Assembly (NCBI GenBank): GCA_010356995.1
Contig: ML996702.1
Span: 1-64,000 of the forward strand
DNA length: 64,000 bases
Reading direction: 5' to 3'
Origin: Trichodelitschia bisporula
Taxonomy: Eukaryota
Made by a program: the position numbers and the translations under genes. Positions 25,802 to 27,975 of the stretch are shown here, in pieces. Every line of letters starts with the position of its first letter. Within the stretch, counting starts at the first letter, position 1. The notes beneath the pieces were generated by a model, which was not told where the DNA came from, ran no database searches, and was given only the letters and a program-made list of their open reading frames with translations.

Positions 25802-26784
25802 CTACGGTATGGACTCGTACACCCTGTCATCGTCCCTTGGGGGCTGCAAGTAGTCGTGCGGTGGTTCCTCTGGCAGCTGGCGCACCTCTGCCCACGAGCG
25901 TACCGCCTCAAAGTCGCGGCACTCATGGCGCGTGTTGAAGTCGACAAACGGCTCTGGCGCCTTGGGATTCCACCACACCTGGCCGAGGACGCCGACGTCC
26001 ACGGTGCACATGAGCTGCTGGCGGATGATGTCAAGGCAGTGCGCTGGCAGGTTAGCTTTGCGAGGAGCTGCGTGGTTATTGTGCACGAGCGGGAGTACTC
26101 ACTGACGTGAAACTTGACAATGTGCTCCTCGTTTTTGAAGGCGCCTTCGCCTCGGTCGTGATAGTAGGCGTGGTTAAAGTAGAGGGATTTTCGGAGGAGG
26201 TTCTTGTTTCGTTAGCACAGTCATAATCTCAGTGGGAGCTTCATTACCAGGCAGTGCAGATGATGGAGTCCTTCGACGTTGGCGGGATATCCTCCTCCAT
26301 ACTTGTCCCGTATCTTGACCTGATCCGGTGCCAAGCCTGACTTCAGTGCGAGGTGGGCGGGGATGGCGACGGCACGGTAGTCAACGCCGAGCGACTCCCA
26401 CGCCGCATCAACCTTGGGCCCAGCATCCAAGCGGAAGTCGTTCAGCTTCGTAAAGGAGCCATTGAACTTGACCGTGCTGTAAGAGATGTCGGCGTCTAGT
26501 AGAGGAGCTGGCGAGTCAGCGCGGGAAGCGGGGTAAACGCGGGGTTGAGCGGGTTGGGGGGTGGGGGGGAACACACAGTATCGCGAGGTGAAACTCATAC
26601 ACAACACATCTCGATTGACAAACGCTCTTCCAGCCCAGAGACCGCCAACTACGCACGCTAGATGTGAAGCGACAAGGAGTATGCGCTTGCGGGTCTGCGA
26701 CTTCACCACTACCACGGGCTCATCCGGCAGCAGCGCCTCTGCGTCCTCGGACTCAACTTTTCGCGAAGCAAACCACGAAGCCAT
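25802..26784 (-). CDS. UstYa/DUF3328 family oxidase (fungal RiPP cyclase-type), 4 exons
   Basis: Single N-terminal transmembrane segment; VDAAWESLG; first HXXHC (EGLHHLHCL|NLLRK); second HXXHC formed across an intron (FHVTHCLDIIRQQLMC..D); FNTRHECRDFEAVRSWA. Three canonical introns restore an intact ORF. Confidence 0.93.
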
Positions 26785-27384
26785 GACGGATGGGAGCTGG
26801 CGGATGCAGCGCAATGAAGAACAGAACCGACCTTGCGCAAATTTGGGGGCCGAAATCGTCTTGAGCGACTTTGATGATGGATTGCAGGATTCTGGAGCCG
26901 AGACCCAAGGTCTGGACCACGGTGCCACGCCGCTTAGGGCAAGTGGCGGCCATCGTTGGTTCAGCTTCGAAGACGTAGAGTGGCTTCCAATATTGAGAGA
27001 TGCTTTTGCGCGGGGTCAGCTGGCGGCATGGCTGAATTGGGAGGTCTACCGTCAACGCAGGTGGTGGTCATAAATTCCCCCAAATAGCATTGACCGGGGC
27101 GTGCCAACATGTCAAGTCGCCATTTGCGGGGCCAAAGAGCACGACATGCCTTGTACTCTGGGGTTGATGTTGCGGCACGGCAATTGGTGCGGCGAGCTGG
27201 TGGCGTCCCCAGCTGAGGTCCCAGCCTTGCACCTTGCATGATGGCCGGGCGAGATGGACAGGCGAGATGGAGCGAGCGAGACGAGTTGTTGTGTTGCGGG
27301 GTATATAATGGCGGGCGTATCGAGGGACGCATTCACTCACATCCTACACTCCTCCACCTACATCTCTCACCTCGCATCACTACT
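26785..27384. promoter_or_regulatory. Putative bidirectional promoter between the DUF3328 gene and the precursor gene
   Basis: 600 bp between head-to-head ATGs; TATATAA at 27302-27308; GCGAGA repeats at about 27248-27283. Confidence 0.6.
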
Positions 27385-27975
27385 ATGCGGTCCACACTCT
27401 TCGTCCTCGCCCTCGCCCTCGGCATCGCCGCCGCGCCTACCAACGTCGCTCGCGAGGCTGCGCCCGAGGCTGCCGCCGCGCCAGCGCCCGGATATGGCGA
27501 CTACGGCAAGTACGGCAAGTACGGCAACTATGGCAAGTACGATGGCAGCTATGGCAAATACGCGTCATACGGCACGTACAAGCGGTCGGCGGAACCAGAG
27601 GCTGCCCCCGAGGCTGCCCCCGAGGCGGCTCCCAAGCCCGAGGCGGAGCCTGCTCCGGCACCCGGCTACGGCGACTACGGGAAGTACGGCAACTACGGCA
27701 AGTACGATGGCAGCTACGGCAAATACGGGTCGTACGGCACGTACAAGCGGTCGGCGGAGCCAGAGGCGGCCCCTGAGGCGGCCCCAGAGGCTGCTCCTGA
27801 AGCGGCTCCTGAAGCTGCTCCTGAGCCCGAAGCGGAGCCTGCGCCTGCTCCCGGCTACGGCGACTACGGCAAGTACGGCAGCTACGGCAAGTACGATGGC
27901 AGCTACGGCAAGTACGCGTCGTACGGCACGTACAAGCGCCATGTCGAGTGGTCAGTAGCCCGTTCGGCTGTTTGA
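27385..27975 (+). CDS. Kex2-processed repeat protein (KEP), candidate RiPP precursor with three Gly/Tyr/Lys-rich cores
   Basis: Signal peptide MRSTLFVLALALGIAAAP; three repeats of an acidic EA/AP spacer + GYGDYGKYG..YGKYDGSYGKY.SYGTY + KR. The last few codons may differ if GTCAGT near 27951 is a splice donor. Confidence 0.92.
   Translation: MRSTLFVLALALGIAAAPTNVAREAAPEAAAAPAPGYGDYGKYGKYGNYGKYDGSYGKYASYGTYKRSAEPEAAPEAAPEAAPKPEAEPAPAPGYGDYGKYGNYGKYDGSYGKYGSYGTYKRSAEPEAAPEAAPEAAPEAAPEAAPEPEAEPAPAPGYGDYGKYGSYGKYDGSYGKYASYGTYKRHVEWSVARSAV

Follow-up and report, generated by a model that had tools for sequence, protein, structure and literature searches.

A divergent UstYa-type oxidase and tyrosine/glycine repeat precursor in Trichodelitschia bisporula as a candidate minimal cassette for a modified secreted peptide

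The stretch analysed here, referred to as the window, comprises 64,000 nucleotides of Trichodelitschia bisporula contig ML996702.1 (GCA_010356995.1, positions 1 to 64,000). It contains a divergent pair of genes: a UstYa/DUF3328-type oxidase gene on the minus strand and, on the plus strand, a gene for a secreted precursor with three repeated, tyrosine-rich units. A first-pass annotation, made from the sequence alone, had described an intact DUF3328 gene, a precursor with three cores ending in Lys-Arg (KR) and a 600-bp gap between the two genes, and had read the pair as one unit for a peptide that is made on the ribosome and modified after translation (RiPP). The features that it described are all borne out (Table 1). 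Our analysis adds three elements to that account, namely spacers that lie in dipeptide register, a large family of related precursors and an unusually conserved oxidase group.

The oxidase gene consists of four exons with a coding sequence of 810 nt, giving 269 amino acids and a stop codon. Its product is a 100% match to database protein P0021, listed by NCBI as a hypothetical protein of Trichodelitschia bisporula. P0021 matches positions 8-218 of the 220 positions of the Pfam UstYa profile (PF11807) with an E-value of 4e-57 and 194 bits, the cut-off being 25, and even separate exon pieces match at 3e-17 and 9e-20. Both expected HxxHC motifs, HHLHC and HVTHC, are present. The protein has one strongly hydrophobic stretch, which fits the predicted N-terminal membrane helix of UstYa proteins. 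DUF3328 enzymes are membrane-anchored, disulfide-linked homodimers that require O2 and electrons, bind two coppers through an HxxHC(x)nHxxHC motif and act at C-H bonds by hydroxylation, halogenation or macrocyclisation, the reported targets being C(sp3)-H (PMC12435403; this and the other PMC articles are cited for the portions of their text that were available). By analogy with the topology of CctR, the helix would keep the catalytic portion, bound to the membrane, on the luminal side of the secretory pathway, and the conserved residues C202 and C231 could correspond to the dimer disulfides of that enzyme (PMC12435403). No sequence relative of the oxidase was found among solved structures (best E 0.21). 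A predicted complex of two luminal oxidase parts with the last core and its tail, computed without controls and without an alignment, scored 0.01, 0.54 and 0.01 (mark 0.34).

Contigs from runs X1 and X2, which stem from one sample of one study and whose RNA type is a guess, were placed on positions 25000..28600. They skip exactly the three oxidase introns, which end in CT..AC on the plus strand and hence in GT..AG on the gene. In both runs, depth is zero over 25000..25241, as expected of cDNA and not of genomic DNA. One contig of each run has a further joint in the 3' untranslated region of the oxidase gene, where 56 nt are skipped in X1 and 52 nt in X2 (letters between the two sides indeterminate in X2). 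Contigs of both runs span the precursor without a joint; an intron guessed by eye near its 3' end (~27951..27993) was dropped for this reason. A single X1 contig runs from 26385 to 27584: it begins in oxidase exon 1, with the adjoining intron removed, spans all of the intergenic region and enters the precursor gene. It may reflect overlapping divergent transcripts or a long 5' leader; a contig across two genes does not amount to a single transcript. Co-expression, which had been proposed as a check, is supported insofar as both genes occur in spliced contigs, within the one sample of guessed run type.

The precursor gene is a single exon encoding 196 amino acids. Hydrophobicity peaks at residues 4-22, and the ..AAP end of the signal-like segment is common to the precursor's relatives. 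With tandem repeats parted by dibasic KR sites and a hydrophobic N-terminus (putative signal peptide), the protein falls under the definition of repeat proteins that Kex2 processes (KEPs). The three cores (30, 27 and 27 residues, with 10, 9 and 9 Tyr) are near-identical; Tyr occupies every third position with one slip, Gly and Lys lie between, and the net charge is only +1 to +2. Tandem Repeats Finder reports a repeat of 165-189 nt with 87-90% matches. Six runs of at least four Tyr at spacing three occur in the six frames of the window, and all six lie inside this gene.

The spacers that precede the cores are regular as well. Counting starts at the residue that follows each cleavage site; from there, Ala or Pro stands at every second position, and all three runs stop exactly at Gly-Tyr. 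In 200,000 shuffles, the register of spacer 2 was matched 166 times and that of spacer 3 40 times, both significant, while the register of spacer 1 was matched 45,418 times and is explained by composition alone. Kex2 cleaves after KR, Kex1 takes off the KR, and Ste13 takes off X-Ala/X-Pro dipeptides (PMC6339444). The Ste13 signature after a dibasic site is present here, with all 13 dipeptides of spacer 2 and all 17 of spacer 3 in register. From their sequence, the spacers appear to be dipeptidyl-peptidase substrates in the register that trimming by a Ste13-type enzyme requires. At the first cleavage site, the cut would come after a single Arg (..VAR), a feature common to many of the precursor's relatives; as this is no classical Kex2 site, the first-cleavage step is the least certain.

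Table 1. Positions of the oxidase-precursor pair, its parts and neighbouring genes in the window.
Feature	Position	Strand	Basis or remark
UstYa/DUF3328 oxidase gene	25802..26784, start to stop	-	4 exons; reading frames and spliced contigs
Oxidase exons	26577..26784, 26248..26507, 26103..26202, 25802..26043	-	sequence and X1/X2 contigs
Oxidase introns	26508..26576, 26203..26247, 26044..26102	-	absent from X1 and X2 contigs
First HxxHC motif HHLHC, aa 151-155	26251..26265	-	sequence
Second HxxHC motif HVTHC, aa 188-192	26036..26109	-	interrupted by intron 26044..26102
Predicted single membrane helix of oxidase, aa 34-52	26628..26684	-	top hydrophobic 19-aa stretch of P0021
Extra joint in oxidase 3' untranslated region	25629..25684	-	one contig each of X1 and X2
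Shared intergenic region, 600 bp between divergent start codons	26785..27384	.	sequence
TATATAA, upstream of precursor gene	27302..27308	.	sequence
Precursor gene, 196 aa, single exon	27385..27975, stop 27973..27975	+	translation; X1/X2 contigs without joint
Signal-peptide-like N-terminus, ~aa 1-17	27385..27435	+	hydrophobicity; cleavage point placed by eye
Spacer 1, 6 X-Ala/X-Pro dipeptides after Arg23	27454..27489	+	register count
Core 1, 30 aa, 10 Tyr, plus KR	27490..27585	+	translation
Spacer 2, 13 X-Ala/X-Pro dipeptides, KR site to core	27586..27663	+	register count
Core 2, 27 aa, 9 Tyr, plus KR	27664..27750	+	translation
Spacer 3, 17 X-Ala/X-Pro dipeptides	27751..27852	+	register count
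Core 3, 27 aa, 9 Tyr, plus KR	27853..27939	+	translation
C-terminal tail HVEWSVARSAV, after last KR	27940..27972	+	likeness to family tail by eye
HET (heterokaryon incompatibility) domain gene, nearest recognisable neighbour on precursor side	30528..32672	+	Pfam
TRI-like acyltransferase, 13 kb away	11179..12344		Pfam

An 85-aa exon piece of the oxidase, used as query, retrieved 304 proteins at E <= 1e-3 from 454 candidates. The best 120 of these 304 share 60-74% identity over the piece; they come from Dothideomycetes, Leotiomycetes, Eurotiomycetes and one Lecanoromycete, and many are labelled 'Tat pathway signal sequence'. Forty-eight named, near-full-length orthologues selected from the best 120 have 52-62% full-length identity to P0021 and cover three fungal classes. 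H151, H152, C155, H188 and C231 are invariant among the 48, and H154, H191, C192 and C202 are at least 90% conserved. A maximum likelihood tree of the 48 and the largest exon of an orthologue from metagenome contig L014, with unnamed and partial rows excluded, tracks taxonomy: it requires 6 label changes, where the minimum is 4 and the shuffled mean 24.6. The tree contains an old duplication inside the Leotiomycetes. Judged from these sequences, the oxidase group is strongly conserved and inherited mostly vertically. In the ESM Atlas, the oxidase retrieved UstYa clusters only, of the 'Tat pathway signal sequence' type (scores 0.95-0.96), and the cluster named 'Oxidase ustYa' is separate from them (TM 0.46). 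A scan of genome-contig and viral-contig collections found no relatives of the oxidase. One Aspergillus awamori record, P0106 (419 aa, named 2-oxoglutarate dioxygenase), includes an orthologue of the oxidase. The record may result from fusion of two gene models, in which case the orthologue would have a dioxygenase neighbour in that species.

The precursor likewise belongs to a large family. A word-indexed protein search gave 16 relatives and an added search with the first core two more, the window's own precursor being missing from the public protein set. When 1.84 billion cluster representatives were searched with a profile built from 13 members, 214 matched at E <= 1e-3 and 61 at E <= 1e-10. 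We examined 155 family rows, consisting of the 16 and 2 proteins from the word searches and 137 new ones from the best 150 of the 214. Y-x-x-Y-x-x-Y is present in 145 of the 155, Tyr followed by a dibasic site in 107, and a crude test for a signal peptide is positive in 91; the C-terminus of 16 is a canonical tail of the type A-V-D/E-W/F-V-K-x-x-F/W, of which the tail in the window looks, by eye, like a weak version. Core ends were compared in 144 segments from 104 proteins, chosen for Tyr at position -1 and a second Tyr at -3 or -4 before a dibasic site. At the unforced positions -7 and -10, Tyr occurs in 95% and 62%, respectively; position -3 is Gly in 81%, position -2 is Ser, Thr or Ala in 83%, and 98 of the 144 segments have KR as their dibasic site. 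These counts therefore give the family signature Y-G-x-Y-x-x-Y-G-x-Y-KR. Core length ranges from 27 to 48 aa across the family, and only both ends are conserved, the middle being variable and often proline-rich. Spacers are in register from the residue after K/R to at most three residues from the first core Tyr in 51 of 93 cases; 11 of 93 are in a shifted register only, and one of these 11 is artefactual, owing to a Lys inside a spacer of the window's precursor. No Pfam family exceeded the threshold in the five members checked, the window's precursor included, and the best ESM Atlas score for the precursor, 0.82, serves as a lead only.

Given these relatives, it is highly improbable that the precursor is a mere low-complexity open frame beside a real oxidase gene. 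Such a reading would account for its absence from the public protein set and for its repetitive, GC-rich sequence. It is already contradicted by the X1 and X2 contigs that cover the gene, by the signal-peptide-like N-terminus, KR sites and in-register spacers, by the 214 related cluster representatives and by the conserved neighbour.

Several observations from the family searches stand apart from the pair. A metagenome scan with the precursor alignment gave at least 593 stretches; among 14 loci, only L001 and L014 are of fungal type. Eleven of the 14 were set aside by eye as Tyr-cluster tails of long proteins or other unrelated low-complexity frames, and L002 as another kind of protein. In L003-L009, L011 and L013, the motif YG[DNK]YG[KND]YG mostly matched C-terminal Tyr clusters of long proteins, which by eye resemble bacterial polysaccharide chain-length-regulator tyrosine kinases and are unrelated to the pair. 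Seven profile matches (P0190, P0211, P0236, P0253, P0267, P0275 and P0278) have an animal-type look by eye, with Gly/Tyr or Gly/Trp cores ending in W/G-K-R and with acidic X-Ala/X-Pro spacers; their sequences suggest an independently evolved precursor design. In the L014 repeat gene (7449-8434), a short intron lies at an equal place in every repeat, after ..YGNYGG, and was therefore copied together with the repeat unit. A gene of this type, with an intron per repeat, is easily missed or mis-called by gene finders.

The pair was found in four of five testable cases: the window, Amylocarpus encephaloides, Mollisia scopiformis and metagenome contig L014. In Amylocarpus, a 72,057-bp contig carries P0012 (KAG9232726.1), a Gly/Tyr repeat protein, together with P0128 (KAG9232725.1), the orthologue of the oxidase; in Mollisia, peptide P0222 (KUJ18968.1) and orthologue P0103 (KUJ18967.1) share a 1,547,631-bp scaffold. 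For both species, adjacency is read from consecutive accession numbers on the strength of GenBank practice. On L014 (77,948 bp), an oxidase orthologue at 4850..5831 (-) has 65% identity (E 1.8e-75; Pfam 1.9e-42 on the largest exon), and a Gly/Tyr repeat gene starts at 7449 (+), divergent from the orthologue and 1.6 kb apart. The L014 pair is flanked by TPR, Usp and Paf67 genes that have no counterpart in the window, so the pair alone is shared; alignment of the two intergenic regions gave no convincing conserved block. In the oxidase tree, Trichodelitschia groups with Tothia, Mollisia falls in Leotiomycete clade a, and Amylocarpus and L014 fall in clade b. The pair-bearing oxidases thus occupy three separate clades on both sides of the tree midpoint, spanning two fungal classes and two paralogous oxidase clades. 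As far as the sequences tell, an old pairing retained through duplication is most simply the reading of this placement.

Its recurrence in distant fungi makes it probable that the pair works as one unit. The data show directly the gene structures, the motifs and the dipeptide register, the occurrence of both genes in spliced contigs and the pair's recurrence in other fungi. The first-pass proposal of a single RiPP-type unit stands as regards conserved linkage and the presence of both genes in spliced contigs; its other part, a modified and possibly polycyclic Tyr-cross-linked product, is a prediction. DUF3328 genes are enriched beside KEP genes in general (22% of 7,878), and Tyr is commoner in the repeats of KEPs with a DUF3328 neighbour, 65.6% vs 38.2% (PMC7329392), so the pairing as such is not new.

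An alternative is that the oxidase does not act on the precursor at all: the peptides would be secreted unmodified, the linkage kept by a shared divergent promoter or by descent, and the oxidase would serve another substrate. At least 304 oxidase relatives, counted with one 85-aa piece, face only 16-18 annotated peptides from the word search, and 78% of surveyed KEPs have no DUF3328 gene nearby, so none is needed (PMC7329392). The fifth testable case, Acephala macrosclerotiorum, also points this way, with P0150 on an 848,192-bp contig apart from the listed orthologue P0104 on a 455,426-bp contig; P0150 is an atypical Gly/Tyr protein with a Cys domain. The count gap is weak evidence, as peptide genes are under-annotated: the precursor of the window is missing from the protein set, and that of L014 has an intron in every repeat. 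Furthermore, with every flanking gene different, the pair recurs across two classes and with oxidases from two paralogous clades, which is hard to explain without functional coupling. We regard separate functions as an unlikely case.

We favour, with a likelihood somewhat above even, the explanation that both genes belong to one conserved cassette that yields a modified secreted peptide. The action of the oxidase on the precursor, all processing steps and the chemistry we infer, and postulate as follows. Both genes would be read outwards from their shared 600-bp region. The precursor would enter the endoplasmic reticulum via its signal peptide and meet, in that compartment, the oxidase, a membrane-anchored, probably dimeric, two-copper, O2-dependent UstYa/DUF3328 enzyme. 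The enzyme would act on the Tyr-rich cores while they are still within the precursor, perhaps guided by the tail or the spacers. The likeliest reaction would be that of characterised relatives on cores containing Tyr: either the side chain of a Tyr is linked to a carbon in a residue close by, giving a macrocyclic ether, or a C-H bond is hydroxylated. Our first guess would be Tyr-based ether rings, by analogy with ustiloxin, phomopsin, asperipin-2a and the epichloecyclins, in which UstYa-type enzymes link Tyr side chains to other residues (PMC9233826, PMC7329392); the second would be hydroxylation as carried out by CctR. The regular Y-x-x-Y spacing would permit several rings in succession. A Kex2-type protease would cut after each KR, a Kex1-type carboxypeptidase would then strip the KR, and a Ste13-type dipeptidyl peptidase would remove 6, 13 and 17 X-Ala/X-Pro dipeptides, halting at Gly-Tyr. 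Three peptides of 30, 27 and 27 residues would be secreted.

Besides the Acephala case, several points weigh against this explanation. The product and its modification are both predictions. To our knowledge, the cores, at 27-48 aa, by far exceed every known UstYa substrate in length. The four positive cases among five form a non-random sample, as Mollisia was picked for look-up on a prior hint; three of the four positives are Helotiales-like, and the named Gly/Tyr peptide genes of Exophiala sideris, Rachicladosporium, Thozetella and Hymenoscyphus albidus were left out, as these species have no orthologue in the best 120 of the 304. The oxidase group may extend wider than the peptide family. 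DUF3328 enzymes also act outside ribosomal peptide pathways, as in cyclochlorotine (PMC12435403).

Core length bears on a second alternative, in which the peptides work without cyclisation. Released by Kex2 and Ste13, they would form a sticky Gly/Tyr/Lys surface, adhesive, matrix or antimicrobial material, and the part of the oxidase would be limited to priming them, for instance by hydroxylation, so that they are cross-linked later in the wall or in a Tyr polymer. Cores of 27-48 aa suit structural Kex2 peptides better than the 4-9-aa dikaritin cores do, Tyr recurs at every third residue with Gly and Lys between, and the large family and vertically inherited oxidase suggest a physiological role and not that of a toxin. 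Comparable materials are the Ustilago repellent peptides, mussel foot proteins and Gly/Tyr-rich nematode defence peptides. CctR shows that hydroxylation is possible in the enzyme family, but aromatic-ring hydroxylation by a DUF3328 enzyme is not known from the available text of PMC12435403, where the reported targets are C(sp3)-H. In addition, a core net charge of +1 to +2 is weak for a cationic antimicrobial, and wall association is conjecture. On balance, we consider uncyclised material an unlikely explanation, though one with real points in its favour.

The neighbourhood of the pair was surveyed by Pfam scans of 23 long frames in the left and middle parts of the window, 70 frames of 80 aa or more in the interval from 8.3 to 30.6 kb, and 19 frames elsewhere. 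As the first-pass annotation had stated, no tyrosinase, methyltransferase or transporter is adjacent; none of these, nor a peptidase, was found within ~8 kb around the pair, a range in which genes with exons below 80 aa could escape. The window holds one UstYa match only. The first-pass term 'minimal pathway' therefore stands in that no further pathway gene was found; like 'two-gene', it holds only for Pfam-recognisable genes within ~8 kb.

Further away, the stretch from 17 to 24 kb is gene-poor: its GC content is 0.43-0.49, that around the pair 0.56-0.63, and its frames of 80 aa or more gave no Pfam match. A DUF676/PGAP1-like alpha/beta-hydrolase frame (7192..8298, -) has an NB-ARC/TPR frame (4549..7047, -) directly downstream, and the frames within 4549-8298 (-) may be one fungal NLR-type gene with a lipase-like N-terminal domain. 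A copia-type reverse-transcriptase fragment (RVT_2) occupies the left end of the window at 680-1459 (+).

Whether the pair counts as a dikaritin system depends on the definition used. Under the enzyme-based one, in which DUF3328 is the class-defining enzyme (PMC12048977), the pair belongs to the class, as a DUF3328 gene with two HxxHC motifs stands beside a repeat precursor. The five-gene definition of Ding et al., as told in PMC12048977, which asks for tyrosinase, methyltransferase, several DUF3328 genes and a transporter or peptidase, does not apply, because tyrosinase, methyltransferase and transporter are absent from the Pfam scans and only one UstYa match occurs in 64 kb. The pair is a real, conserved, minimal dikaritin-like cassette, the chemistry of its product being our inference.

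Among characterised systems, asperipin-2a of Aspergillus flavus, made from AprA with the single DUF3328 cyclase AprY, likewise combines a secreted Kex2-type repeat precursor, Tyr-rich cores and one UstYa-family enzyme. Its linkages come from internal Tyr side chains, and tyrosinase is not required (PMC9233826); according to the account in PMC12435403, AprY is reported to depend on copper and O2. In contrast to its hexapeptide core, the units here are 27-30 aa long, bounded by KR and contain 9-10 Tyr; they are preceded by long Ste13-type dipeptide spacers, and the oxidase appears to lie in a separate, far more conserved 'Tat pathway signal sequence' group. The ustiloxin, phomopsin and victorin systems share a DUF3328 enzyme with two HxxHC motifs, a precursor with signal peptide and KR repeats, and the central place of Tyr in cyclisation. 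Their clusters carry tyrosinase, methyltransferase, several DUF3328 genes, peptidases or transporters, whereas none was found around this pair by Pfam, and their cores measure 4-6 aa against 27-30. In known dikaritins, only part of each repeat survives. Because of this, and because the family conserves only both ends of the core, the full 27-30-aa stretch need not be the modified core.

The epichloecyclin system (gigA) is a small cluster round a highly expressed Kex2-type repeat precursor with Tyr-based cyclisation (PMC10540207). It differs in its nonapeptide products, in its restriction to Epichloe and in its four genes, which include an own kexin. The cyclochlorotine hydroxylase CctR shares the Pfam family, N-terminal membrane helix, HxxHC(x)nHxxHC motif and further luminal cysteines (PMC12435403); it hydroxylates a non-ribosomal cyclic peptide, whereas the present oxidase is known from sequence alone. 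Trimming of the yeast alpha-factor resembles the proposed maturation, as X-Ala/X-Pro dipeptides right after the cleavage site are removed stepwise by a dipeptidyl peptidase (PMC6339444). The alpha-factor has 2-3 dipeptides vs runs of 13 and 17 here, and the released peptides are unrelated. Honeybee promelittin undergoes the same stepwise dipeptidyl-peptidase trimming. The Rep1 repellents of Ustilago maydis come from a repeat protein whose processing by Kex2 sets free peptides a few dozen residues long, a material and not a toxin; we know of no sequence likeness to the present precursor and of no partner oxidase. The pair differs from all characterised cases in core length (27-48 vs 4-9 aa), period-three Tyr/Gly content, long Ste13-type spacers and the mostly vertical conservation of its oxidase.

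As the first-pass annotation had supposed, a literature search found no characterised product or precursor of this kind. Nor did the search, which covered supplements incompletely, find a published description of the precursor family or of its link to the oxidase group; six motif strings were not found in the supplements of PMC6339444, whose tables may be incomplete.

A bolder reading, which we put forward as a rather doubtful proposal, is that the pair is an ancient, vertically inherited module of non-yeast ascomycetes. A dedicated copper oxidase would stitch or hydroxylate a Tyr ladder of spacing three on peptides of 27-48 residues. The product would be a long ribosomal peptide of a new kind, bearing multiple cross-links, or an extracellular material; its role would be physiological, at the surface, in adhesion, in the wall or in the spore coat, and not that of a toxin, and the conserved C-terminal tail would be a recognition tag for the enzyme. 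The module would range over Dothideomycetes and Leotiomycetes and perhaps Eurotiomycetes and Lecanoromycetes.

It is only recently that fungal UstYa enzymes were shown to form a new copper-enzyme class. The products known from them are few, mostly toxins with cores of 4-9 residues. The cassette joins one of the most conserved UstYa members to a large, unnamed family of secreted Tyr/Gly peptides. As the precursor is absent from the public protein set, genome-mining surveys of annotated proteins undercount such short repetitive genes. If the coupling is true, it would define a widespread class of modified peptides with unusually long cores, and the enzyme family would gain a natural substrate that, with two genes, is simple enough to reconstitute. 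As a whole, the pair is a good and cheap target for reconstitution.

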